Below are positions 1 through 30,234 of a DNA stretch of 64,000 bases, piece by piece. Both the position numbers and the translations under genes were made by a program. Source of the DNA: an uncultured virus (IMG/VR IMGVR_UViG_3300035422_000155) (Duplodnaviria > Heunggongvirae > Uroviricota > Caudoviricetes); IMG/VR virus record IMGVR_UViG_3300035422_000155, one strand, 5' to 3'. The notes beneath the pieces were generated by a model. That model saw only the letters and a list, made by a program, of their open reading frames with translations. It made no database searches and was not told the origin of the DNA. Each line of letters opens with the position of its first letter. Position 1 is the stretch's first letter.

Positions 1-513
1 GCGGGGGTCCAGGAGGCGGGCAGGATTCTGGTGGTGGGCAACAAGGAGGCCCAGCGGAAGATGGTTTTGGAACTGGGGATGGAATCGGGGGACTACTGTG
101 ACAGCAGGACTCAGGATCCGGGTCAGTGGATCCGGGAGCGGACCGGCGGCCTGGGGGCGGATGTGTTCTTTGAGTGTGTGGGAAAGAATGAGACGGTGGC
201 CCAGGCGGTGGAAAACACTGCTCCAGGGGGGCGGATCTGTCTCATGGGAAATCCTGCCTCCTCCATGGCTTTGGAGATGGAAACCTATTGGAAAATTCTG
301 CGCCATCAGCTGCGGATCACGGGAACCTGGAACTCTTCGTTTACCCATGGGGCGGATGATGACTGGAACTACTGCATGGAACGTCTTGGGGCGAAGCGGG
401 TGGATCCCGGCAGGCTTATCACTCACAGATATTCTCTGGAGGAGCTGCATCGGGGGCTTCATATTATGCGGGATAAGACCCAGGATTATATTAAAATTAT
501 GACAATGTTTTGA
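1..513 (+). CDS. Zn-dependent (MDR) polyol/polyol-phosphate dehydrogenase, 5'-partial
   Basis: Frame open from base 1; GADVFFECVG, GGRICLMG, LITHRYSLEE..KIM C-terminal MDR motifs. Confidence 0.8.
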   Translation, partial: AGVQEAGRILVVGNKEAQRKMVLELGMESGDYCDSRTQDPGQWIRERTGGLGADVFFECVGKNETVAQAVENTAPGGRICLMGNPASSMALEMETYWKILRHQLRITGTWNSSFTHGADDDWNYCMERLGAKRVDPGRLITHRYSLEELHRGLHIMRDKTQDYIKIMTMF

Positions 514-626
514 ACTTGGCGTACATCTTTTTTCGGCACAGTTCTAAGGGCGGGAACGGGAAGATATCCGGCGGAGGAATGCCGTCGGACAGGAAATTCC
601 GCAGGCAGGAAAGGGATGGTTTCAAG

Positions 627-700
627 TTTTTTGGATCTGTTTTTTTGGATTTGGTTTTTCGGATCTGATATATCGGATCAGGTATATCGGATCCGGTTTT
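627..700. repeat. Imperfect 14-bp-period tandem repeat with GGATY core, 5 units
   Basis: GGATY at 633, 647, 661, 675, 689. Confidence 0.7.
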
Positions 701-745
701 AAGAATATGATTTAGGGCGCGTACAGTGCCCGGCAGGGGGCAGGA

Positions 746-2089
746 ATGAGAAATTTTCAGAAGAAGCAGTGCCTGGAGACCATAGAAGTGCTCAGTGAGG
801 CACATGGGGAGATTGTGAAACTGATTGAGAATAAACGGGTTCAGGGCGCGGCAGAGCTTATGGAGCAGTGTCAGCAGGGGGCCATAGGTATCGGCACTCT
901 GGTTGACAGTACGGAGGGGGAGGGGACGGAGACGGTCCGCTGCCTGGAGGAGTACTGCGAGGTTCTGTACCAGTTCTGTGAGAAGCTTCTGGAGGGAGCT
1001 TCCGTGAATACATGGCAGATGCAGAAAAAGCTCAGAAAACTTCTGGTGCGGGTGGAAAATTCCATCAACCATGAGATTCGGATTCAGAGGGAAGTGGTGT
1101 TTCTGCCTTATAAAGCTTCCATGTGGGATTCTCTGGAGTCTGTGTGGAAGGCGGCGGATGAAGATCCGGACTGCAGGGCACTGGTTATCCCTATTCCCTA
1201 TTATGACAAGAATCCTGACGGTTCTTTCGGGGAACTGCACTATGAGATTGCCCAGTACCCGGAGGAAGTGCCGGTGATGGGCTATGAATCCTATGATTTT
1301 GAGGCCAGACACCCGGATGTTATTTTCATTCACAACCCTTATGATGAGGGAAATTTTGTCACCAGTGTGCCTCCGTTTTTTTACTCTAAAAACCTGAAGC
1401 AGTTTACAGATAAGCTGGTCTATATTCCCTACTTTATCCTGGCCGAGATCGACCCCTCCGATAAGGAGGCAGTGGAAGGAATGGAGCATTTTGTCACCAC
1501 TGCAGGGGTGATGAATGCGGACCGGGTGGTGGTGCAGTCGGAGGCCATGCGGCAGATTTATGTGGATGTGCTCACCAGGCACACAGATGAGAGTCTTCGG
1601 CCTACATGGGAGAAAAAGATACTGGGACTGGGCTCCCCCAAGGTGGATCGGGTCTGCGGTCTGCGGAGAGAGGACTTTGAGCTGCCGGAGAGCTGGGACA
1701 GGCTGATTCAGAGGGAGGATGGCAGCCGCAGAAAAGTTATATTCTACAATACCAGCGTGACGGCCCTGCTGAAGGACAGTGAGGCCATGATGAAAAAGAT
1801 CAAGGAAAACCTGCAGATTTTTGAGGAGAACCGGGAAGATGTGGTGCTGCTGTGGAGGCCCCATCCGCTGACGGAGGCTACGCTTGCATCCATGCGTCCG
1901 GAGCTTATGGGGGAGTATGGGGAGATGGTGTGCAGGTACAGAGAGGCTGGCTGGGGCATCTATGATGACTCCCCCAGCATGGATCGGGCCATAGCGGTGA
2001 GCGACGGCTACTACGGCGACTGGAGTTCCATTGTGTGGCTGTATCAGAAAACAGGGAAACCTATTATGATACAAAATCCCAAACTCTGA
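746..2089 (+). CDS. CDP-glycerol glycerophosphotransferase (TagF-like) family protein
   Basis: FLPYKASMWDSLES, IHNPYD, LVYIPY, LGSPKVD, LWRPHP, YYGDWSS motifs. Confidence 0.7.
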   Translation: MRNFQKKQCLETIEVLSEAHGEIVKLIENKRVQGAAELMEQCQQGAIGIGTLVDSTEGEGTETVRCLEEYCEVLYQFCEKLLEGASVNTWQMQKKLRKLLVRVENSINHEIRIQREVVFLPYKASMWDSLESVWKAADEDPDCRALVIPIPYYDKNPDGSFGELHYEIAQYPEEVPVMGYESYDFEARHPDVIFIHNPYDEGNFVTSVPPFFYSKNLKQFTDKLVYIPYFILAEIDPSDKEAVEGMEHFVTTAGVMNADRVVVQSEAMRQIYVDVLTRHTDESLRPTWEKKILGLGSPKVDRVCGLRREDFELPESWDRLIQREDGSRRKVIFYNTSVTALLKDSEAMMKKIKENLQIFEENREDVVLLWRPHPLTEATLASMRPELMGEYGEMVCRYREAGWGIYDDSPSMDRAIAVSDGYYGDWSSIVWLYQKTGKPIMIQNPKL

Positions 2090-2176
2090 GGGAAATTTTT
2101 GTATTTCTTATCTGGCGGGCAGTTTGGGAAAAGACGGTTCAGGATAGCCTATTTGTCTTGGGCCAAGGGGGCGGTC

Positions 2177-2671
2177 ATGGGAGAGTACACGATTGTGCCG
2201 ATGAGAACAGATGAAGAAATCAGCGGTAAGGCGTTTGTGCATTTTCAGTCCTGGCATGAGACCTATGAGGGTCTGGTGGATGGGGAATATATGAAGACGG
2301 TGACACTTGAACGCTGTGAACAGATTGCCCGTGCATGGAGAGATAATCTGCTGGTGGCGAAGGATGGGAATAAGGTTATTGGCTTTGCGGGATATGGCAG
2401 ATATCGGGATGAAACCATGGCGGAATATGGTGAGATCTTTGCGCTCTATGTTCTGCGGGCATACCAGGGCAGGAAGGTGGGAATTGCACTTATGAATGAG
2501 GCGGTGGAAAGGCTTGCCGCCCACCCTGCAATCTGTCTCTGGGTGCTGAAGGGGAATGAGAAAGCGATAAGATTTTATGAAAAATATGGCTTTCGTTTTG
2601 ACGGCACAGAGCAGGAAATACTGCTTGGAACGCCCTGCATAGAGCAAAGGATGGTGTTACAGCGTTTTTGA
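2177..2671 (+). CDS. GNAT family N-acetyltransferase
   Basis: EIFALYV..YQGRKVG..LM and N..AIRFYEKYGF; ATG 2177 chosen as start. Confidence 0.85.
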   Translation: MGEYTIVPMRTDEEISGKAFVHFQSWHETYEGLVDGEYMKTVTLERCEQIARAWRDNLLVAKDGNKVIGFAGYGRYRDETMAEYGEIFALYVLRAYQGRKVGIALMNEAVERLAAHPAICLWVLKGNEKAIRFYEKYGFRFDGTEQEILLGTPCIEQRMVLQRF

Positions 2672-2967
2672 AGACTCTTTCTATAAAGTGTTTTTGTCAC
2701 GGAAAAATCGGTGGTTCAGGACTTCATGAATCGTTGCCAGCTCCAGCATTTTGGAACTGTGCTTTTAACAATTCCTTAGCCTCTGGCAGGGAGTCAGTCG
2801 CGGACAGCAGGGCCATATGCTCTGGGGCTGGCTATAGTTTAACATTTCAGGGCCTGGTTTGTCTAAACCAGGTTTTTTTGTCTGTGTGATTTTCAAATCT
2901 AAGCTTTGAATTCTAAATTTATAAATTTAAGTTCTGAATTCCCAATTTTCATATTTAAATTTGAAAT

Positions 2968-3630
2968 CTAAAATTTCAGTTCCCGAATATTCTGCAGGGT
3001 TTCGCCATAGGATTCTTTTTTTCCGAAGAGCAGTGTGGTGCCCAGCACAAACCCTTTCACTCCCTTGGGGGCATATTCCAGAATCTTGTCCGCACTGCAG
3101 GCGCCGTCCCAGCAGATCTCAAAGTCCATATCTTCTTTTAGGGCCAGCAGTTTGGTGATCTTTTTACCCACATAGGGCAGGTACATCTGTCCGGCATTTC
3201 CGGGGTTCACGGACATCACAAGCACTTTTCTCACAATGCGAAGAAGCTCCATTACCGTCTCCACAGAAGTGCCGGGATTGATTGCAATACCGGGAATCAT
3301 CCCTGCGTTGATGACTTTCTGCAGGGTGGTGGAAGGATGGTATTCCGCCTCCGGATGGATATATACCGTGTCGCCCTTACGAAGACACCCTAAAAAGATA
3401 CCGATATTATTGCAGGGGTGCTCTATCATCAAATGCACGTCCACAGGCTTTTTTGTGGCCATAGTGATGTACCGCAGATCGTTCAGGGACATGGCAAAGT
3501 TCGGCACATACCGCCCGTCCATGATATCTATATGGAAAGAGTCTATTCCTCCCTCCTCCAAGGCCTTTACTTCTTTTTCAAGATTGCCATAGTTGGCGCA
3601 CATCATTGACGCCATCAGCTCAAATTGCAT
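2968..3630 (-). CDS. rpe: Ribulose-phosphate 3-epimerase family (Rpe/AlsE-like)
   Basis: FHIDIMDG.YVPN, DVHLM, MSVNPG, DG motifs; RBS GAAGGAG before ATG 3630. Confidence 0.85.
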   Translation of the reverse strand: MQFELMASMMCANYGNLEKEVKALEEGGIDSFHIDIMDGRYVPNFAMSLNDLRYITMATKKPVDVHLMIEHPCNNIGIFLGCLRKGDTVYIHPEAEYHPSTTLQKVINAGMIPGIAINPGTSVETVMELLRIVRKVLVMSVNPGNAGQMYLPYVGKKITKLLALKEDMDFEICWDGACSADKILEYAPKGVKGFVLGTTLLFGKKESYGETLQNIRELKF

Positions 3631-3895
3631 ATAAATTCTCCTTCCGCAGTTTAGGAACCAGCCTTTTTTCGTTTTCTTCACTATGTATGAATGCTGTTAT
3701 ATGCTCATCAAAGCATAAATACATGGAAACTGCGGAGGGACGCCATGTATTGTGATTGCTGTGAAGAAGAGAGTAAAACAACACGAAATAAAATAAAGCA
3801 ACAGCCGATATACAGCACATCCCAGCTGGTGCTTCTTGATGTGGGTATTCGTAGAATAACTATTTCTACGAAACCTCTCTGGCGCAAAAGCCACT
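3631..3895 (-). promoter_or_regulatory. Long structured 5' leader of the epimerase gene with an anti-SD segment
   Basis: 3727-3740 complementary (13/14) to RBS region 3639-3652; further hairpins at 3718-3751, 3816-3843, 3848-3872. Confidence 0.55.
3848..3873. repeat. 26-bp dyad site, left copy (exact inverted repeat of 4273-4298)
   Basis: TTCGTAGAATAACTATTTCTACGAAA; 9-bp arms around a 7-bp spacer. Confidence 0.9.
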
Positions 3896-3901
3896 GTACT
3901 C

Positions 3902-3930
3902 ATTATATATACCGTCAAATAATTTGTCAA
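3902..3930 (-). promoter_or_regulatory. Consensus sigma70/SigA promoter pointing to the epimerase gene
   Basis: Minus strand TTGACA-17bp-TATAAT, perfect match. Confidence 0.85.
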
Positions 3931-4100
3931 TCACTTTTCAGGAATTAAGTTTTCAAGTAATTTCTGGCAGAATATTAAAGATATCGACAATAAATTATTC
4001 TAAAACTGTACAAACACTTTCTCTATCGACATAGGGATCCAGTTTCTTAACTTGTCAGAGAAAGTTTCTGATCAGAGAGGGCCTGAAAAAATTTTATTCG

Positions 4101-4232
4101 CCGTCAAAATTCTGGTCAAGGAAATGTCCTGGCTCTGTCTGGAAAAGGCGCAGAAAACAAGCTCTGCGGAGGGTGAGACGGGCGAAAAGGCGGTTCTTTC
4201 ATAAAGGTATTTACCGTCAAAATTCTGGTCAA
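4101..4232. repeat. 19-bp direct repeat CCGTCAAAATTCTGGTCAA (4101-4119, 4214-4232), related to 3912-3930
   Basis: Exact duplication; minus strand reads TTGACC-17-TAAAAT and TTGACC-17-TACCTT. Confidence 0.8.
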
Positions 4233-4272
4233 ACAAGCTTTGGGTGCAGAAAATATCAGGTTTGCGGCAGGA

Positions 4273-4298
4273 TTTCGTAGAAATAGTTATTCTACGAA
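4273..4298. repeat. 26-bp dyad site, right copy
   Basis: TTTCGTAGAAATAGTTATTCTACGAA, the reverse complement of 3848-3873. Confidence 0.9.
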
Positions 4299-4353
4299 AT
4301 TATACTGGAAGTCCTGGAGAGATTTATCGGGTGACAGAGGGTGGAAAAGATTT

Positions 4354-5679
4354 ATGGCCCAGGAGACAATATACAAGACAGTATATCAGTATAACAAGGA
4401 ACCGATTTCTGTCAGGGATATGGCAAGGCTGCAGGAGATTGCGGAAGATTGCAGAAAAGTTCGCAATTTTGTGTATGACCGGTATGGAGGTATAGGGGGG
4501 CTCCCCAAGATTTATCCAGGCTATACGGTGCAGAATGAAATGACCAAAAGCGGGCTGCGGGAGAGGCTGGGACTTCCATCGGTGTTCTTTTACCTCTCTA
4601 TCTTTGATGCTTTGGGTGATATTAAAAGCCAATGGACCCGTATCAAGAGCCGGATAGAGAAGAACATTCAGGTAAATGCAGAGCTGACTGCAGAAGACAG
4701 ACATTATTTGCGTTTTGTGATGAAACAGAGCCGCTGCTTTGAAGCGGTCCTGGCGGGAGGAGAACCGGATCTTCGAGGGGACTGGAGGGAGACTTATGGG
4801 GCCCTCAGAGCAGGTGTGGATGCATACAGGCTGGACCAGTATCTGCGCAGGCAGGTCAGGAGACACCTGGTAAAACCTCACACGGATACGGCGGATGGAT
4901 TTACCATTTCGCCCAAGGGATACAGATATGCCGATCATGGGATATACATTTCCATGAAAGAGAGTCGTCAGAGACTTTTCATTCTGCTCACGGATAACAA
5001 TCGCTACTCCAGGCAGATATACCTTCGGCTTTATCCGAAGGAAGGCAACATTACCTTGAATGTGCCGGTGGAGGTAAAGCAGAGGCACCCTAGAGGATAT
5101 GAAGGGGAAATCGGCCTGGCCCTGGGGCTTCGGTGCATGTTTGTCACTCATACGGGGCAGATGTATGGGGAGAAATATTTTGAATATCAGTCCGCGCTGA
5201 CGGAATATGTCAGGGAGCGGCTGTCCCGTCACCGCAGAAATGCGGAAAATAATCCGGGCATGAAAAAATATACTGCGGGAAAGAGGCGGCTGGAGACGGC
5301 GCTGCACGCTTATGTGAATGCGGAGATCAACCGGCTGCTGGAGACAGAAAAGCCCGGAGTGGTGTATATTCCAAAACTTCCTGGTATGGTGAAAGCAGGA
5401 GTGAACCGGAAAGTGAATGCGGGTCTGAACATGTGGCAGAGAGGCTATGTGAAAAAGAGGCTGGAACGCAAGTGCAGGGAACGGTCCGTGGAGCTTGCGG
5501 AGGTGTTTGGAAAGGGTATCAGCACCGAATGCTGCCGCTGCGGGGCGGAGGGCAGGAAGGAAGGGGATATATTCCGCTGCAATTCCTGCGGACAGGAGAT
5601 GCCGGAGAGACAGAATACAGCTGTAAATGTGCTGAACCGGGGAAAAAAGCTGAAGGCCGGGAATGCTGGTGAGACTTGA
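4354..5679 (+). CDS. TnpB/Cas12-like protein with inactivated RuvC (nuclease-dead, TldR-like), 441 aa
   Basis: C-terminal Zn ribbon STECCRCG..FRCNSCG then ERQNTAVNV; RuvC-I IGLALG (D>A), RuvC-II VVYIPKL (E>P), RuvC-III (D>Q); no tnpA adjacent. Confidence 0.8.
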   Translation: MAQETIYKTVYQYNKEPISVRDMARLQEIAEDCRKVRNFVYDRYGGIGGLPKIYPGYTVQNEMTKSGLRERLGLPSVFFYLSIFDALGDIKSQWTRIKSRIEKNIQVNAELTAEDRHYLRFVMKQSRCFEAVLAGGEPDLRGDWRETYGALRAGVDAYRLDQYLRRQVRRHLVKPHTDTADGFTISPKGYRYADHGIYISMKESRQRLFILLTDNNRYSRQIYLRLYPKEGNITLNVPVEVKQRHPRGYEGEIGLALGLRCMFVTHTGQMYGEKYFEYQSALTEYVRERLSRHRRNAENNPGMKKYTAGKRRLETALHAYVNAEINRLLETEKPGVVYIPKLPGMVKAGVNRKVNAGLNMWQRGYVKKRLERKCRERSVELAEVFGKGISTECCRCGAEGRKEGDIFRCNSCGQEMPERQNTAVNVLNRGKKLKAGNAGET

Positions 5680-5742
5680 GGCGTGGACGGCAAAGGATAG
5701 GCCGGAAAAAATTTGAATTAAGAGTTCAGAATAGATGTGATG

Positions 5743-6136
5743 ATGAAGCAGGTAAGGTTTGAATTGAGAAATAGATGACACAGGTTCATTATGAAGGATT
5801 CCGTGGATGAATGCGCCGTCAGGCTGTATTTGACCAGAACCGGAAACGGGAACAGGACTGCGGGAAAATTCTTTTGATAGCTTAAGGCAGGTACTGTCTG
5901 AGCAGATAAAAACAAGAACGGCATTGGAAGCCGTCCCTTTTGGGGACGGGTATTGGGTATGCCAGGACCCATGGGAACTCAGGCGCGGGATTCCGCAGAT
6001 GCAGCAGGTAATGGATGTGCATGGCACAGAAATGGCAGGCAGCATTCTGAGAAGTACCGGGAGCGAAGCGGGCAGGCGGGGAGTATGCAGGAGATTTTCA
6101 AACGCAGAAAGAAGAGTCTGTCAGCATCACCTGTAA
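5743..6136 (+). pseudogene. Degraded gene remnant, possibly GNAT-like
   Basis: Protein-like segments MKQVRFELRNR*HRFIMK.. and FDSLRQVLSEQ..GYWVCQD..RRGI broken by a stop and frameshift. Confidence 0.3.
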
Positions 6137-6341
6137 GGGTGACAAAATGTGCCTTATTATAATATATGGAATAGTCTTATGAATTGAATCATGATTGCTG
6201 ATATGTTAGACAAAATGGATAGTCAAGATCTGTTGATGATACCAGTAGTATGACAGCGGGTTTATACACAGGGAGGAATTTAGGGAGAATAGTTTCCTCC
6301 CCAGTTTGTGTACGTGCCATAGCGCGTGGATGGGGGCAGCT

Positions 6342-8903
6342 GTGAGGAAGGCGCAGAAAAAACAGGCGGAAGAGTTTACGGACTTATTGGAACAGGTCCA
6401 TGGGGAAATCAGAAGGCTGATAGAGACAGGCGGTGCTCTGGCAGCCATGGATCTGTTGGTACAATGTCAGGAAGGAGCTGTTCAGCTGGGAGAATTGATA
6501 GAGAAGACAGAAGGGGATGACTGTACAGTTATTCCCGTGTTGGAGAATTACTGTGAGCTGGCTTATCATATCCATGAAGAACTTTCTGCTGGAGTGGGAA
6601 TCACCCCCAATAAAATCCATAAAAGGCTGCACAGGCTGTTGATTCAGATCAAAAACAGGATACGAAATGACATCAAGGTGCGGTATGAGATGGTATTCCT
6701 TCCATACAAGGCATCCATGTGGGATTCCCTGGAGAGTGTGTGGCAGGCTGCGGATGCTGATCCGAACTGTGACGCCTATGTGGTTCCCATTCCTTATTAT
6801 GACAAAAATCCAGACGGTTCCCTGGGAGTGTACCATTATGAAGGAAACAATCTTCCCTCTTATGTGCCGGTAGTGCATTATGACACATATTCCTTTGAGA
6901 ACAGGAAACCGGATGCAATATATATCCATAATCCATATGATTATGCAAATCATGTCACAACAATTGAACCCAGATTTTATTCGGAAGAATTGAAGAAATA
7001 TACAGAATGCCTGGTCTACATCCCCTATTATGCCACCTCCGGCGGTATGGCCGAGGGGCAGATGCAGTGCCCGGCTTATTATCATGCGGATTATATCATC
7101 ATACAGGCAGAGAAATACCGCCAGTTTTTTGATCCGGCGCTGCCGGCGGAGAAACTGGTGCCGCTTGGTTCACCCAAGTTTGACAGGGTTATCCATATGT
7201 GTGAAAACCCACCCCAGCCGCCGGAGGAGTGGAAGGAGAAAATGGCGGGCAGGAAGGTGTATTTCTATAATACCAGTATCCAGGGGATGCTGGGGAACAC
7301 GGAGGCTTTCTTAAAAAAGATGGAGTATGTGTTCAATACCTTTCGGGGGAGGGAGGACGTCTGCCTGCTGTGGAGGCCCCATCCGCTGCTGGAGTCCACT
7401 TTTGAATCTTTGAGACCCATGTATAAGCCTGCGTATGATGCCCTGAAACATGGATTTATCAGTGAGAATCTGGGGATATATGATGAAACACCGGACATAG
7501 AAAGTACAATTGCGCTCTCGGATGTCTATATCGGAGATGGGGCCACAAGCGTCACATCGCTTTTTGGCGTTGCGGGGAAACCGATTTTTGTTTTGAATAA
7601 TAGTATTCACACATTGCCGGAGAAGGATGACTGGCGAGGGGAAGTGGTTAATCCTGCGTTTGATATGTGGGGAAATGACAGATTCCAAGTGACCAGGAAT
7701 AATCAATTGTGGTTCTCTGAGAATAATGATTATCACTATCATTTTTATATGGATCTGGAGACGGGTTATTCTTCAGGAGGATATTATATAAGAGCCATTG
7801 AGATAAAGGATAAAATTTATGTGCTTCCCGGTAATGCACAGAACCTGCTTATTGTAAAAGATAAGAAGATTAAAAAAATCAAGTTTAAGTATCAGATCAC
7901 ACAGCCAGGAGCCTTTTGTGGTTCTTGCTATAACGAAAAGTACATTTTTCTGATCCCATACAAATATCCGTTTTTGATTCGTTTTGATCTAGTAACGGAA
8001 GAAATCTATTATGTGGACGGAATAAAACAGTTTAATGTGAGAGATGTGGATGGAAAGTGGCAGGTGGGAGATGCGAACTATTATGAGAATGAGATAGTTT
8101 TTTCTTCTCCAGTAGATAATAATTTGCTGTTTCTTGACATGGATACATTAAAGACAAGGGTGCTCAATAGCAATTCAAAATGTAGTGTTGGAATTCAAGG
8201 TATTGTACCTGATGGGGATGATTTATGGCTCTTGCCTCTGAAGGGGATGACTATATCATGTTGGAATCCAAAAACTGGGGCAATAAGGGAATACGGAGAT
8301 TTACCCCAGAACTTTAAATCCATAAAATGGCCTTATGAACTGGAATGTGAGGAACGACCCTTTGGCGGAATAGCATTTTCCAGAGAAGGAAGCAGGGAAA
8401 ATATTGTCATTTCTCCCTTGTGGGGAAATATGTATTTGTCTCTTGACAGGGAGACAGGAAAAATGGAGAAATGGGATCTTCCAATATTGTGCGCAGATCG
8501 TAAAAAAAATGGATATTTTGGAACTGCAGGTATGGGCTATTTTGTTATTACAAGATTGCAGCGTGGGAAAGCCCGATGCCGGTTATGGTATGTGCCAGAG
8601 AGAAAATTTTACAATGTTAATATTGATACAAAAGAATTTGACGAAGTAGTTGTAAAATTTGACTATGAAGAACTAAAGGAATATGCCTCAGGTTTTATGG
8701 AGGAATCAGAGTGGCTGCAGTACAGTTTGAATGAAAGTGCATTTAACTCTCTGAAAAGCCTTCTGGATGAAAAAGTAATCGGAAATCAGTTTGACAGGGA
8801 AAGACAATTAAGGGCATTCTCTAAAATAAATGCGGATACAGCAGGAACATGCGGGAAACGAGTATATAGTTTTGTGGGGGAGAAAATCGGAAGGATTCTC
8901 TAG
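6342..8903 (+). CDS. TagF-like glycerophosphotransferase family protein with C-terminal beta-rich extension
   Basis: N-terminal ~430 aa paralogous to 746-2089 (FLPYKASMWDSLESVW, LWRPHP); GTG 6342 aligns with the paralog start. Confidence 0.7.
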   Translation: MRKAQKKQAEEFTDLLEQVHGEIRRLIETGGALAAMDLLVQCQEGAVQLGELIEKTEGDDCTVIPVLENYCELAYHIHEELSAGVGITPNKIHKRLHRLLIQIKNRIRNDIKVRYEMVFLPYKASMWDSLESVWQAADADPNCDAYVVPIPYYDKNPDGSLGVYHYEGNNLPSYVPVVHYDTYSFENRKPDAIYIHNPYDYANHVTTIEPRFYSEELKKYTECLVYIPYYATSGGMAEGQMQCPAYYHADYIIIQAEKYRQFFDPALPAEKLVPLGSPKFDRVIHMCENPPQPPEEWKEKMAGRKVYFYNTSIQGMLGNTEAFLKKMEYVFNTFRGREDVCLLWRPHPLLESTFESLRPMYKPAYDALKHGFISENLGIYDETPDIESTIALSDVYIGDGATSVTSLFGVAGKPIFVLNNSIHTLPEKDDWRGEVVNPAFDMWGNDRFQVTRNNQLWFSENNDYHYHFYMDLETGYSSGGYYIRAIEIKDKIYVLPGNAQNLLIVKDKKIKKIKFKYQITQPGAFCGSCYNEKYIFLIPYKYPFLIRFDLVTEEIYYVDGIKQFNVRDVDGKWQVGDANYYENEIVFSSPVDNNLLFLDMDTLKTRVLNSNSKCSVGIQGIVPDGDDLWLLPLKGMTISCWNPKTGAIREYGDLPQNFKSIKWPYELECEERPFGGIAFSREGSRENIVISPLWGNMYLSLDRETGKMEKWDLPILCADRKKNGYFGTAGMGYFVITRLQRGKARCRLWYVPERKFYNVNIDTKEFDEVVVKFDYEELKEYASGFMEESEWLQYSLNESAFNSLKSLLDEKVIGNQFDRERQLRAFSKINADTAGTCGKRVYSFVGEKIGRIL

Positions 8904-8966
8904 TTTTGGATAGGACGTACTCGATTTTTCTTTCTTTAGTTGGAAACATCGGAAAAGGGGAAATTT

Positions 8967-10319
8967 GTGGGAAAAGGGATTATAAAAGTAATTACATATG
9001 GTACATTTGACCTTTTCCATGAAGGGCACTATCGGTTGCTTCAGAGGGCAAAAGCTCTGGGAGACTATTTGATTGTAGGTGTCACTACGGAGACATATGA
9101 CAGGGCCAGGGGGAAACTGAATGTGGTGGATTCCCTGGCTACGCGTATTGAAAACGTGAAGAAGACAGGTTTTGCAGATGAGATCATCACTGAAGAGACA
9201 CAGGGCCAGAAGTTTAATGATATTAAAAAATTTCACGTTGATATTTTCACGGTGGGCTCTGACTGGACTGGTACCTTTGACTATTTGAAGGATTATTGCC
9301 AAGTTATTTACCTGGAACGGACAAGAAACATTTCCAGCACCATGTTACGGGAACAGAAACAGCAGATACAGCGGATAGGAATTATAGGAACCGGCAGGAT
9401 TGCCGGCAGGTTTCTTGTGGAGGCAAAACTTGTCAGCGGATGCAGTGTACAAGCAGCTTATAATCCTCATCCTGGAAGTGCGGCAAAGTTCGCTCAAAAG
9501 TGGGGGATTGACGCATACTTGGACATTGAAGATTTTTTTTCTGTTGTTGATGTGGTGTACATCGCATCTCCCCATGAGACTCATTACAATTACATTAAGG
9601 CAGCTTTGGAACATGGGAAACACGTGCTGTGTGAAAAGCCCATGGTGATGCAGGGAATCCAGGCGGAAAAACTGTTCAAATACGCGAAGGAACGGGGATT
9701 GATACTTTTTGAAGGAATCAAGACCGCATATTGTCCGGGATTCAGCAGGCTCCTGGGAATTGCATGCAGTGGGACGATTGGTAGTGTCCGAAATGTGGAA
9801 GCCTGTTTCACGAAGCTGGAGGCACCAGACACGAGGGAGCTGACAGATCAAAAGTACGGCGGTAGCTTTACGGAACTTGGAAGTTACTGCATGCTGCCTG
9901 TGCTGAAACTTTTTGGGAAGGATTACGAGAAACTGGAATTTGAGACAATCAGGGGAGAGAACGGGCTGGATCTTTTTACTAAAATATCTCTTCGTTACTT
10001 TGGAGGAATTGCCACTGCAACCTGCGGATTGGGGGTAAAGTCGGAGGGCAGACTTCTGATAGCTGGTACAAAGGGATACATTGTGGCAGAAGCACCTTGG
10101 TGGAAGACCGCCTATTTTGAGGTACACTATGAGGAGCCTGGAAAGGTGGAAAAATATTCCGAAAGTTTTCTGGGGGATGGCCTGCGTTATGAAATCAGCG
10201 ATTTTTTGTCCATGATAAACGGGAGTAGTGACAATGGTTTTAAACTGACCCGGGGTGAATCGATTGCACTGGCTGAGATTATGGAAAAATTTCTGGAAAC
10301 GGAAGACCGCATATTGTGA
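8967..10319 (+). CDS. TagD-like cytidylyltransferase fused to Gfo/Idh/MocA oxidoreductase
   Basis: TYGTFDLFHEGH and RT..ISST, then IGIIGTGRIA and HVLCEKP. Confidence 0.85.
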   Translation: MGKGIIKVITYGTFDLFHEGHYRLLQRAKALGDYLIVGVTTETYDRARGKLNVVDSLATRIENVKKTGFADEIITEETQGQKFNDIKKFHVDIFTVGSDWTGTFDYLKDYCQVIYLERTRNISSTMLREQKQQIQRIGIIGTGRIAGRFLVEAKLVSGCSVQAAYNPHPGSAAKFAQKWGIDAYLDIEDFFSVVDVVYIASPHETHYNYIKAALEHGKHVLCEKPMVMQGIQAEKLFKYAKERGLILFEGIKTAYCPGFSRLLGIACSGTIGSVRNVEACFTKLEAPDTRELTDQKYGGSFTELGSYCMLPVLKLFGKDYEKLEFETIRGENGLDLFTKISLRYFGGIATATCGLGVKSEGRLLIAGTKGYIVAEAPWWKTAYFEVHYEEPGKVEKYSESFLGDGLRYEISDFLSMINGSSDNGFKLTRGESIALAEIMEKFLETEDRIL

Positions 10320-10352
10320 AGATGAAAAGGCAGGAATGTAGGAGGTGCGAAG

Positions 10353-11135
10353 ATGAAAATATGGGCGCATAGAGGATGTAGTCAGATGTATCCGGAAAAT
10401 ACTCTACTTGCATTTGAGAAGGCGGCATCGCTGAAAAACCTGACTGGTATAGAATTGGATATACAGCTCACAAAAGATGGGGAAATCGTGGTTATCCATG
10501 ATGAGCGCGTGGACAGGACTACAGAGGGAACAGGATATGTGAGGGATTTTACCCTTTCCCAGCTGAGAAAGCTTCACATTTATGCGGACAATCATCCGAC
10601 TCAACAGGTGCCAACGATGGAGGAAGTCTTGGTTCTGTTGAAACCTGATTTGAAATCCGGTTTGCGAGATGCAAAACAAAATCTGGCACAGAAGGACGCA
10701 GGAGCCAGATCAGGGCTGATTCTGAATATAGAACTGAAAAACAGCATTTGTTTTTATGAGGGGATGGAAGAAAAAATCGTGGAGATGGTTCATAGACATG
10801 GTTTGCAGAGTGCAGTGGTATACTCCACTTTTCATGCAAAGTCGCTGGCTAAACTCAGAAGATTGGATGCAGATGCGGAGCTAGCCATTTTGGATACCAG
10901 GGTTTCGGACTGTCTGTATAAGGCAAAGGGCGGATGTGGTGCGTCGGCACTGCATCCCTTCTGGCAAGGTATTGATCTTCCGCCAGAAGAGCTTGTGGGT
11001 ATAACAGTGCGTGCCTGGATGTCAGGACATCTGTATCCGGAAAAACCAACAGGAACTAAACTGGATTTGACATACTTGGAAAAACAGGGAATTACAGATG
11101 TTATTTTGAATGAACCAGAGGTATATGTCATGTGA
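10353..11135 (+). CDS. Glycerophosphodiester phosphodiesterase family
   Basis: WAHRG..PENT, IELDIQLTKDG..VVIHD, NIELK. Confidence 0.9.
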   Translation: MKIWAHRGCSQMYPENTLLAFEKAASLKNLTGIELDIQLTKDGEIVVIHDERVDRTTEGTGYVRDFTLSQLRKLHIYADNHPTQQVPTMEEVLVLLKPDLKSGLRDAKQNLAQKDAGARSGLILNIELKNSICFYEGMEEKIVEMVHRHGLQSAVVYSTFHAKSLAKLRRLDADAELAILDTRVSDCLYKAKGGCGASALHPFWQGIDLPPEELVGITVRAWMSGHLYPEKPTGTKLDLTYLEKQGITDVILNEPEVYVM

Positions 11136-11221
11136 AAGTCAAAATAGTTACAGGGCGGCCCTATTATGACAACAGGAGATGATTTGACAAAAAGTAGCAT
11201 GAAGAGAGGGACATAAAGCAG

Positions 11222-12464
11222 ATGCAGCAGAATAGTGAAGATTGGATTGAACATATAGCTGAACAGGTACACTTGCATTATAAGGGGCGGAAAGTTGTCA
11301 TATGGGGTAGCTATGGGGTGGCGGATTCCATTAAAGGCAGCTTAAAAGAAAAGTTTGGAATTGACACCGCGTTTTATGTGGATGGTGATAAAAGCAAAGT
11401 TGATGGCAAGATGGTATTATCGCCAGAATATCTGGACGGAAAGTCAGGACAGTATTATGTTGTTGTACCTATAGCATTTTATTCTGCGGTAAAGGAACAA
11501 TTGGTTCAGGGGGGTACCGTAAGGATATAGATTACTTTTACTTTTGTGATTGTGTCCTGCGGCAGGAAGCGGATTATTATGAAGATGCACATGGAAATAA
11601 GATAATTGGAAATTATCAAGGTTTAAAATTTGCGTTTTCGGGGTTTCAGTCTGTGATAAAAATTGGAGAAGGAGTTCAATTTTGTGAAACCAGCATATAT
11701 CTTCATAATGGGGTAGAAGTTGTGATTGAGAGAGGAGTTCAATGTCACGAAAACCATATTTGTCTCTATAATGAAGCTAAGATTATTATTGAAGATGGAG
11801 TAGAGTTAAGAGAAAATCAGATAACAATGAATCAATTTTCAAAAGTTGCAATTGCCAGAAAAGCTGTACTGAAAAAGAGTCATATTACTATTGGAAAGAA
11901 TCCATATTTTATGACGACGATGGAGGACATATATATTTCGAGGTGGAGAAGGGGGCGGAATGTCATATTGGTGTTCAAGGAAAATTTATTGGATCAGGAA
12001 GCGTATTTTTGGGAGAAGATACACTGTTGAAGGTCGGAGGTGGCTTTAGCATAGGAGATAATTATCGGATAACCTTAAATCCCCATACCAGCATTATTAT
12101 AGGAGATGATTGTATGGCATCTTATGATGTTGTTATACGTAGTAATGATGGACATTCAATATTTGACGTGTGCTCGAAGGAAAATATAAATTCTTCATAC
12201 GAGATCAGCAGAGAGAGAAATGTGATGATAGGAGATCATGTTTGGCTGGGACAGCGTACAGTTATTTTATATTATACACAGATTGGGGATGGAAGCATTA
12301 TAGGGGCAAACAGTCTGGTTAAGAGTAAAATTCCCAACAATTGTATAGCAGTGGGGTGTCCTGCAAAAGTAATCAAGAGAAACATTGCCTGGAGCAGGAA
12401 AGAGGGGGCAGAACACATTGATGAGTGTGGAAAGAACTACGTTCATTATACAGAAGAAATATAA
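11222..12464 (+). pseudogene. Left-handed beta-helix acyltransferase split by two frameshifts
   Basis: Three fragments join if one base is added at G6 11509-11514 and one at ~11895; C-terminal IGDHVWLG..IGANSLV..AVGCPAKVI. Confidence 0.75.
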
Positions 12465-28998: not shown

Positions 28999-30234
28999 CT
29001 ATTTTATTTTTTCTATTTCTGTTTTCAGCCAATCAAATTCTCTTTGAGTATAAACCTTTTCTGTAATATCTGAAATCTTATGACCAACCATGTACTTGAT
29101 AGCATATTCATCCACGCCGTATTTCTTTGCCATCGTTACAAAATGTTTTCTGCCGTCATGGGGTCTGTGTTCCGGATTCAGATTTAATTCGGTTCGTATT
29201 AAATCAAAAGCTTTTGTATACCGGTTATAGGTGAGCTTTATATTTTTCTTATTCCGGGCGTTCGGGTCAACCCAGTTCAGAAAATACTTACTGCCAAGTT
29301 CTTCAGCTTCTTTATATTTCTTTTCCACTAAAGAACGAATCTTGCTGTGGATCGGAACTATCCGTTCGCTTCCGGCTTCGGTCTTCATACCGCCTTTAAA
29401 CGTTCCCTCTGTCAAATCTACATTCGCCAATTCTATCAATCCAAGTTCCTGAGGGCGCCACCCAGAATAGCATTGAATCAAGAGGATGTCTATACCTCGT
29501 TTATCATTTACATGTTGCCATAGCAGTTCAATCTCTTCTTCAGTAAATGTGATATGCTCCCGTTTGACATTATGGCACTCTTTCACAACTTCATCGGTCA
29601 GTTTAAAGGTTCGGGAATAGTTCCTATCCACGATCTCATATTCCAAAGCATAATCCAGCATCAGGTTAAACAGTGACTTGATTTTATTCTTCATAGTTGC
29701 GGTCGGAGTCTGCTCCACACCTTTGATAACTGCAACACCTTCATCCATACATCCTTTGATGTGTCTGGCACGAATATCCATCACCCTCATACTGTAAACA
29801 GCGGAGCAATACTCCCAGGCATTCTCAGCAGCCTTTGGGTCTTTGACCGTCTTCTCATACTCAGGGAACCATTTGTCGTAGAGTTCCTGCATGGTGATGG
29901 CAGGCTGCAAGTCATATGGATTCTTGTTATATTCTACGAGGGCTGTATACGCATCATTGTATGTAGGAAAGTAGGATTCCGGTTTCAGCGGTTTACAAAT
30001 AGGTCTGCCGGTTGCTGTCTTACCAACGGTAATCATAGCCCGGAAGGGATTGCGCAGGTTCCGGTTCTTAATCTCGCTGATTTGTCCGAATCCGTTTGGC
30101 AATCTTCTTCTCTTGTTATTTTTGTTTCGGGGTTTTCTCGGTTTTACGTCCGGCTGTATTGGATATCCACAGTGCGGACAGAATGTTGCTTTGTCGCTTA
30201 CCTGCAATTCACATTCAGGGCATTGCATCAACAT
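28999..30234 (-). CDS. int: Tyrosine integrase with N-terminal Zn ribbon
   Basis: CPEC/CPHC; RLPNGFG arm-binding region; catalytic R (GWRPQE), K, HDGR, VGH, VY. Confidence 0.92.
   Translation of the reverse strand: MLMQCPECELQVSDKATFCPHCGYPIQPDVKPRKPRNKNNKRRRLPNGFGQISEIKNRNLRNPFRAMITVGKTATGRPICKPLKPESYFPTYNDAYTALVEYNKNPYDLQPAITMQELYDKWFPEYEKTVKDPKAAENAWEYCSAVYSMRVMDIRARHIKGCMDEGVAVIKGVEQTPTATMKNKIKSLFNLMLDYALEYEIVDRNYSRTFKLTDEVVKECHNVKREHITFTEEEIELLWQHVNDKRGIDILLIQCYSGWRPQELGLIELANVDLTEGTFKGGMKTEAGSERIVPIHSKIRSLVEKKYKEAEELGSKYFLNWVDPNARNKKNIKLTYNRYTKAFDLIRTELNLNPEHRPHDGRKHFVTMAKKYGVDEYAIKYMVGHKISDITEKVYTQREFDWLKTEIEKIK

Follow-up and report, generated by a model that had tools for sequence, protein, structure and literature searches.

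Evidence for a promoter inverton beside a nuclease-dead TnpB-like gene and a glycopolymer operon in an uncultured viral record

The stretch of DNA analysed here (the window, 64,000 nucleotides in full) is the IMG/VR virus record IMGVR_UViG_3300035422_000155, assigned to an uncultured member of the Caudoviricetes. Upstream of a gene for a nuclease-dead TnpB-like (TldR-like) protein, which is followed by a guide-RNA-like region and a run of glycopolymer synthesis genes, it carries a pair of perfect 26-bp inverted repeats enclosing a segment with a consensus promoter (Table 1). We propose that these repeats are the recombination sites of a site-specific inversion switch (inverton) with an outward promoter, and we put the probability of this reading at about 0.85. 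In near-identical genomes the segment occurs both ways round, and the breakpoints lie at the repeats. An invertible switch had been suggested for this locus in an original prediction made from the letters alone, some parts of which are revised below.

Both orientations of the segment

Orientation was compared in four (X6, X15, X16 and X19) of 24 public Logan runs against positions 3000-5400 of the window; the run data are assembled contigs, and contigs drop minor variants. Record 1 of X15 (12,458 nt, depth 33.9) matches 3000-3873 and 4273-5400 on one strand and 3874-4272 on the opposite strand, with 0 other letter differences from the window over 2,401 nt. The same flip of 3874-4272 is present in record 9 of X16 (2,553 nt, depth 5.05), which comes from a different study. 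The joints of the flip, at 3873/4272 and 3847/4298, are the repeats, whose 26 letters fit either side. X6, possibly the source of the window, has the window orientation, as does X19, in which two records are each collinear across one repeat, and four metagenome contigs of the Joint Genome Institute (JGI) that contain the exact repeat (L027, L032, L033 and L034) are collinear with the window at 99.0-99.7% identity. Logan assembly uses words of 31 letters; as the repeat is only 26 nt long, orientation-specific words would have to exist in the reads. A single orientation in reads and relatives, which the original prediction had named as the outcome that would speak against a switch, is therefore not what was found: the X15 and X16 contigs are flipped, and related loci occur both ways.

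One further metagenome contig carries part of the locus. L031 (1,712 nt) matches window positions 4156-4553, including the proximal site, at 96.5% and continues into a 444-aa open reading frame (ORF) whose first ~190 residues are 61% identical to the N-terminus of the TnpB-like protein and whose middle matches Pfam PucR; this ORF may be a mosaic gene or a chimeric assembly.

Anatomy of the inverted sites

The two repeats are 100% complementary over 26 nt and lie 399 nt apart. Each copy reads TTCGTAGAA-N7-TTCTACGAA and is itself a dyad with 9-bp arms around an asymmetric 7-nt spacer (TAACTAT on the left, ATAGTTA on the right), so that reverse complementation of the spacer is the sole difference between them. 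Exact repeats, dyad arms and asymmetric spacer had all been described in the original prediction, and repeat and motif searches recovered them. The site motif occurs twice in the window, and none of 100 dinucleotide shuffles contained two or more matches. At the proximal site the palindrome widens to 11-bp arms over 4272-4300.

The core site of a tyrosine recombinase consists of two inverted binding arms and an asymmetric crossover region of 6-8 bp that is identical in the partner sites, as in loxP, FRT and dif. The repeats have this layout, with arms of 9-11 bp, a 7-nt spacer and partner spacers that are identical as reverse complements. Spacer identity between partner sites extends from the window to 13 related loci with TTCGYAGA-type sites, and spacers vary from locus to locus; being the same within a locus and different between loci is the behaviour expected of crossover regions. 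The arms also show a paired change, from T-A to C-G, between loci (TTCGTAGAA/TTCTACGAA versus TTCGCAGAA/TTCTGCGAA).

The same module in related loci

Homologues of the TnpB-like protein were found in 8 of the 37 genomes of the nearest genus, in none of 24 genomes from other families of the order and in 16 of the 401 genomes sampled across the family, and among species-representative genomes a relative is encoded in 444 stretches. Of these, the best 80 were surveyed for exact inverted repeats of at least 14 nt with the proximal arm at most 200 nt from the gene. Nearly all of these loci are from Lachnospiraceae, many of them from mouse gut, and one (L093, an uncultured Acetatifactor sp.) encodes a protein 100% identical to that of the window. 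A repeat pair lies near the gene in 55 of the 80 loci. In 36 of these 55 the arms are of the window's TTCGYAGA type (class A), and the distance from the proximal site to the TnpB-like gene downstream is 26-171 nt.

A gene for a Phage_integrase-family tyrosine recombinase lies between the sites in 28 of the 36 class A loci (four such in-module recombinases match Pfam Phage_integrase with E values of 1e-26 to 1e-30). The sites are 1.1-3.9 kb apart in these 28 loci, and about 1.4-1.5 kb apart in 14 of them. The remaining eight, which include the window's twin, have no recombinase, and their segments measure 180-425 bp. A smaller set of 27 loci gave the same picture; its genomes overlap with those of the 80 loci, and the two sets are not independent.

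The direction of the promoter is tied to that of the recombinase in these cassettes. Between the start of the recombinase gene and the nearby site lies a match of 11-12 out of 12 positions to TTGACA-17-TATAAT, diverging from the recombinase and pointing outward through the site; in all, 29 of the 36 class A loci have a consensus promoter with a score of 11/12 or more. Where the recombinase is co-directional with the TnpB-like gene, the promoter points away from that gene (14 loci), and where the recombinase is opposite to it, the promoter points into the gene (8 loci); no locus is discordant with this rule, and 6 have no promoter at the 11/12 threshold. Comparison of orientation across related genomes, one of the checks suggested in the original prediction, thus revealed both states among the recombinase-bearing loci. 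Among the short segments (n=8) the promoter points away from the gene in five and towards it in two, and one has no promoter at the threshold. The orthologous loci L081 and L083 on the one hand and L090 on the other have near-identical sites, a spacing of 1441-1442 bp and 153 nt to the gene, and they are in opposite states, which is the outcome predicted by cassette inversion.

Other repeats accompany the gene family elsewhere. Class B loci (L135, L145, L151 and others; 18 of the 80) have repeats of the type CCAAAAAGTACAC...TTTTTGG around 95-146 bp, and a ~200-aa Resolvase-family (Hin-like) gene lies directly upstream in three of the six examined. With Resolvase-family genes at these loci, serine recombinases seem to phase-vary the same dead-TnpB family in certain lineages.

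The comparison also bears on an explanation that requires no switch, in which the repeats would be palindromic operators of one dimeric regulator serving both divergent genes and the assembly inversion would be a rare accident. Each copy is indeed a dyad; the right copy overlaps the weak promoter-like site TAGAAA-17-TATACT, an overlap that the original prediction had pointed out and that holds, and the strong promoter lies just ahead of the left copy. A dimer would explain the symmetric arm changes between loci just as well as a recombinase would. However, a dimeric regulator has no need for an asymmetric 7-nt spacer that is identical and inverted between the copies at every locus, nor does it account for a recombinase between the sites in most class A loci with both orientations common, and two flipped runs of four are too many for a rare accident. 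As the main function of the repeats, the shared operator that the original prediction had listed as an alternative is therefore most improbable; a secondary operator role of the sites, besides inversion, is compatible with the data.

A candidate recombinase in trans

No close match to the in-module recombinases was found in the 64-kb window (tblastn best E 0.11), and the small ORFs of the 399-bp interior gave no Pfam match and include no recombinase gene. The lone Phage_integrase gene of the window, at 28999-30234 on the minus strand, stands beside prophage-like genes. The statement in the original prediction that no invertase is adjacent is thus correct insofar as none of the relatives' recombinase family is encoded in the window; it does not carry over to the relatives, in most of which the recombinase lies inside the segment.

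Because the window has no such recombinase, we looked to a near-identical genome, G462, for the acting enzyme. This incomplete 2.9-Mb assembly holds an identical locus and encodes four homologues of the cassette recombinases. Three of them have their own repeat-flanked cassettes beside unrelated operons. The fourth, C22:2417-3535, is stand-alone: no repeats lie within 9 kb of it. Its identity is 65-73% to the recombinases of L076, L105, L087, L107 and L084, the loci whose sites are closest to those of the window, and at most 40% to 24 of the 25 other recombinases compared, the exception being L108_C with 59% over just 68 residues. Judging from these identities, the stand-alone recombinase is likely to be a trans-acting invertase for the window locus.

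The three cassettes with their own recombinase (G462:C43, C111 and C112; L172-L174) are tyrosine-recombinase cassettes with inverted sites of the form TTCGTRAAA-N7-TTTYACGAA and no adjoining TnpB-like gene, and they stand beside operons that start with 263-272-aa and ~600-aa proteins without a Pfam family. The self-contained recombinase cassette seems to be a general switch in the G462 organism. The same assembly encodes three TnpB-like paralogues and holds further copies of the site.

These copies bear on another reading, which takes the repeats for the ends of an integrative or transposable element (attachment sites or terminal repeats) and traces the differences in orientation to independent insertions. 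Altae-Tran et al. 2023 (PMC10691335) took the repeats of the same architecture as attachment sites, and site copies at other G462 loci would suit a mobile element. These other copies have different interiors or are single. In disagreement with independent insertions, X15 differs from the window by an in-place flip alone, the sites enclose the recombinase and promoter and not the TnpB-like gene, and no target-site duplication lies beside the repeats, which are flanked by GGGTA and ATTAT. Tyrosine recombinases excise and integrate at directly repeated sites, and inverted sites lead to inversion. Moreover, the distance of the proximal site is near-constant though the genes are just 40-80% identical, and a near-constant distance at such diverged genes argues for long co-residence. 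We regard attachment sites or terminal repeats as very unlikely. An insertion sequence or miniature inverted-repeat transposable element was considered as well and rejected, as there is no target duplication and no repeated whole element.

Several observations weigh against an inverton at this locus. By the exact-match criterion, 25 of the 80 homologous loci have no repeat pair, and 6 of the 28 recombinase-bearing loci have no promoter scoring at least 11/12. All four JGI metagenome contigs and two of the four Logan runs are solely in the window orientation; the data are at the level of contigs, and a recent fixed difference between strains could also explain the flipped state. The promoter is predicted from consensus matches, and the recombinase family is missing from the 64-kb window. 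Finally, two G462 sites, C10:26330-26354 and C135:4523-4547, carry the window's spacer yet are unpaired.

No partner of either lone G462 site was found within 9.6 kb. Of the lone spacer-sharing sites (L170 and L171 in G462, and also L028-L030), one precedes a TnpB-like paralogue with 63% identity; at the other lone G462 site, a Pnkp-like/RNA-ligase flank is joined to an outward promoter just before the contig end. The lone sites may bound a large inversion or reflect assembly breaks.

The TnpB-like protein and its RNA

The TnpB-like protein matches the NCBIfam model guided_TnpB with E 5e-15 and 55.6 bits, below the cut-off of 100, and a profile of 24 members retrieves Cas12f and TnpB chains from the PDB (E 3.6e-9). 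Its AlphaFold2 model has a mean predicted local distance difference test (pLDDT) score of 85.4; in a Foldseek comparison of this model with the PDB, the top 50 matches all belong to the Cas12/TnpB superfamily (Cas12 subtypes, TnpB, Fanzor2 and TranC; best E 7.4e-13). At the positions of the RuvC D/E/D residues, all 24 aligned members have A/S, P/V and no conserved acid, respectively, and the four zinc-finger cysteines are invariant in the same alignment, in which the mean column identity is 55%.

Directly downstream lies a structured RNA region whose 3' end is a conserved motif, AAATGTGCCTTATTA, at 6145-6159. RNAalifold predicted 38 pairs in it, 26 of them with compensatory changes; 90.4% of cells pair, versus 36-45% in slid controls, and the covariation score of 0.488 compares with control values of at most 0.11 and was reached by none of 500 shuffles. 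A search of window positions 1-12000 against Rfam at E values up to 1 returned two sub-threshold chance matches and left the RNA region unmatched. From the stop codon to the 3' motif the region measures 480 nt in the window versus 210-324 nt in 18 relatives, and the extra sequence is at its 5' end and in two internal loops (5680-5770 and 6010-6130).

The stretch past the 3' motif varies between loci and is the candidate guide. Its 26 nt were searched in each locus and in the paralogous locus of the same genome for perfect matches of 10 nt or longer and for 14-nt matches with at most 2 mismatches, and only chance-level matches were found. Two guide candidates of 20 nt, searched with up to 3 mismatches in the incomplete G462 assembly, each matched itself alone. 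Guides may be as short as 9 nt according to a 2026 preprint. As far as sequence can tell, the TnpB-like gene and its downstream RNA have the anatomy of a TldR with its guide RNA; since no target was found, the guide itself is presumed.

With such an RNA next to the switch, it might be asked whether one repeat copy is transcribed in a guide and the other is the DNA target of the dead TnpB-like protein, as the original prediction had also considered. The adjoining gene is a homologue of RNA-guided proteins and has a structured RNA, and the outward transcript would include a site copy in either orientation. However, the conserved scaffold lies downstream of the gene, the variable stretch has no match by the above criterion to the repeats or the interior, and sites also flank the recombinase cassettes on C43, C111 and C112, which have no TnpB-like neighbour. 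A guide/target pair thus received no support and is extremely improbable.

Interior and flanking genes

The perfect leftward promoter of the original prediction is present in the interior, where it reads from 3930 to 3902, and 28 nt separate its -10 hexamer (TATAAT) from the left site. In the window orientation it points toward the epimerase gene. The promoter-like repeat of the interior, of which further copies are given in Table 1, recurs within other cassettes. A DNA search with the intergenic segment in 61 relatives found no locus homologous to it, the sole match being a 28-nt promoter-like motif in one genome. In G060, from another family of the order, two loci (L001 and L005) contain the unit TTGACnAGAATTTTGACGG of the window interior in tandem, in ~410-bp segments bounded by other inverted repeats, GAAGTAATCTACTTCATGAA; this unit in repeat-bounded segments points to similar cassettes outside Lachnospiraceae.

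The genes on either side, an epimerase to the left and a dead TnpB to the right, are those that had been predicted, as Pfam, NCBIfam and the RuvC alignment agree; the epimerase-family gene matches the NCBIfam model rpe with E 1.9e-47, under the model cut-off. Past the distal site, the nearest gene converges with the outward promoter in 24 of the 36 class A loci, is co-directional in 8 and is absent from the vicinity in 4, and the epimerase gene of the window is of the co-directional type. Because the distal neighbour is convergent in 24 of the 36 loci, the constant partner of the switch is the TnpB-like gene, and on this gene arrangement the epimerase gene is best taken as a locus-specific passenger or addition. 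The idea that inversion redirects the promoter from the epimerase to the dead TnpB accordingly needs qualification: inversion would do so, but the epimerase side is not a conserved partner. In the epimerase leader, a 14-nt inverted repeat (3639-3652 and 3727-3740, 93% complementary) has one arm over the likely ribosome-binding site and may form a translational or attenuator hairpin.

Downstream of the RNA region, a plus-strand run that extends to ~28.7 kb contains cytidylyltransferase/oxidoreductase, GDPD, LicD, NeuB, aminotransferase and glycosyltransferase genes. The Atlas neighbours of the 865-aa protein at its start include a cluster with Glyphos_transf in 62% of its members. Homologous large genes follow the TnpB-like gene in relatives too, and those examined members whose neighbours could be identified head teichoic-acid-like glycopolymer operons. 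The part of the window from 28999 to 60000 has a Zn-ribbon phage-type integrase and then prophage-like genes: DUF6353 twice, a DUF5906 primase-like 1,457-aa protein, an N6 methylase and a Tad3-like Thoeris inhibitor.

Table 1. Features of the switch locus and its surroundings (positions in the window)
Feature	Position	Strand	Remarks
Ribulose-phosphate 3-epimerase family gene	2968..3630	-	Pfam Ribul_P_3_epim E 2.8e-44
Putative distal inversion site (left inverted repeat)	3848..3873	.	TTCGTAGAA-TAACTAT-TTCTACGAA; joint in flipped X15 and X16 contigs
Invertible interior, 399 bp	3874..4272	.	flipped in X15 (record 1) and X16 (record 9); as in the window in X6 and X19
Consensus sigma-70-type promoter TTGACA-17-TATAAT (predicted)	3902..3930	-	12/12 match; outward through left site
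Second promoter-like copy TTGACC-17-TAAAAT	4091..4119	-	10/12; 25-nt repeat unit at 4095-4119
Third 25-nt repeat copy TATTTACCGTCAAAATTCTGGTCAA (minus strand TTGACCAGAATTTTGACGG...)	4208..4232	-	92% identical to 4095-4119 copy
Putative proximal inversion site (right inverted repeat)	4273..4298	.	56 nt upstream of TnpB-like start codon
Weak promoter-like site TAGAAA-17-TATACT	4278..4306	+	9/12 consensus match; overlaps proximal site, outside interior
Nuclease-dead TnpB-like (TldR-like) gene, 441 aa	4354..5679	+	Pfam Cas12f1-like TNB domain
Structured non-coding RNA region, omega-RNA/guide-RNA-like scaffold	5770..6159	+	directly downstream of TnpB-like gene
Variable stretch after scaffold, candidate guide	6160..6185	+	varies between loci
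865-aa protein gene, no Pfam family	6306..8903	+	first of plus-strand glycopolymer synthesis run

Proposed mechanism

In the inverton that we propose, site-specific recombination at the inverted sites would flip the 399-bp interior; because the sites are in inverted orientation, the interior would be flipped and not deleted. In the window orientation the promoter would fire toward the epimerase gene. In the flipped orientation it would read through the proximal site into the dead TnpB-like gene and then into the guide-RNA-like scaffold, and, because no plus-strand terminator was predicted, read-through would probably continue into the glycopolymer operon behind them. The flipping is presumably carried out by a tyrosine recombinase, which in the window's organism would act in trans, with the C22 homologue of G462 as the candidate. 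We infer that switching is reversible and frequent and that inversion sets the expression of the TnpB-like gene and the operon.

The function of the switched-on TnpB-like protein and its RNA is a more speculative matter. One possibility, which we consider doubtful at present, is an RNA-guided trans-locus regulator: turned ON by the inverton along with its own operon, the pair would silence paralogous surface-polymer loci or another target. If this were true, a cell would display one polymer at a time, the system would correspond, in RNA-guided form, to the UpxZ logic of Bacteroides capsules and would parallel the cross-targeting of flagellin paralogues by csrA-tldR loci, and two unrelated recombinase classes (tyrosine and serine) would have been recruited to phase-vary one regulator family. 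More generally, the analysis points to a large family of putatively phase-variable TldR-like genes in Lachnospiraceae, mostly from mouse gut, with relatives encoded in 444 stretches. This family offers a natural ON/OFF allele in public strains for target finding.

Comparison with known systems

The proposed mechanism is classical. In the fim switch of E. coli and the RecV-dependent switches of Clostridioides difficile, a tyrosine recombinase inverts a promoter segment between short inverted repeats. The fim and RecV recombinases are encoded outside the segment, whereas in most relatives of the window the recombinase gene lies inside and flips with the promoter. At surface polysaccharide loci of gut Bacteroides, inverted repeats flank a promoter that heads glycan operons, with Mpi or Tsr as recombinases; one trans recombinase can serve several loci there, and the first genes of the operon are regulators (UpxY/UpxZ). 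Invertible promoters at such Bacteroides loci are reportedly also described in the PhaseFinder paper (Science 2019). The Bacteroides invertons differ from the window in phylum and recombinase families, and their operons start with an antiterminator/inhibitor pair, whereas the operon of the window starts with a homologue of RNA-guided proteins.

Characterized TldRs belong to fliC-, csrA- and oppF-associated clades (2026 preprint), and a published parallel concerns the second of these. Upstream of csrA-tldR loci in Oscillibacter and Flavonifractor, hin genes, inversions of ~120 bp and a FliA promoter have been described (Nat Microbiol 2026, PMC13418256). The csrA-tldR loci and the switch proposed here both place an invertible promoter directly before a nuclease-dead TnpB gene of gut Firmicutes, with several paralogous loci in a genome, and the class B loci of the present family resemble the hin inverton in the length of their segments and their Resolvase-family gene (three of six). 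In contrast, the csrA-tldR system has the serine invertase Hin outside the segment, a FliA-dependent promoter and a flagellin trait, whereas the relatives of the window have a tyrosine recombinase inside the segment, and the window has a sigma-70-type promoter and teichoic-acid-like glycopolymer genes.

A literature search found no tyrosine-recombinase inverton driving a dead TnpB and no link between a TldR and glycopolymer genes; the supplements of Altae-Tran et al. may bear on this point. The association itself has already been noted by those authors (PNAS 2023, PMC10691335), whose main text describes fully inactivated TnpBs associated with phage-integrase-like tyrosine recombinases in three TnpB branches. 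There, the recombinase locus is 'often surrounded by inverted repeats', and sometimes the site is present and the recombinase missing. The repeats are treated as attachment sites under a heading on transposase associations, and the words 'phase' and 'inversion' are absent from the main text. The architecture is like that of the window, which would be a case of the recombinase-missing, site-present type. Relative to that main text, the present analysis adds the in-place inversion, the consensus promoter that points outward, the strict coupling of promoter direction to recombinase orientation and the glycopolymer-operon context; what is new is the inversion reading, its demonstration at the window locus and the connection with glycopolymer operons. 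A promoter cassette that inverts would also account for a published oddity, namely that the recombinase occurs in 'seemingly random orientation' between inverted repeats near inactivated TnpBs.

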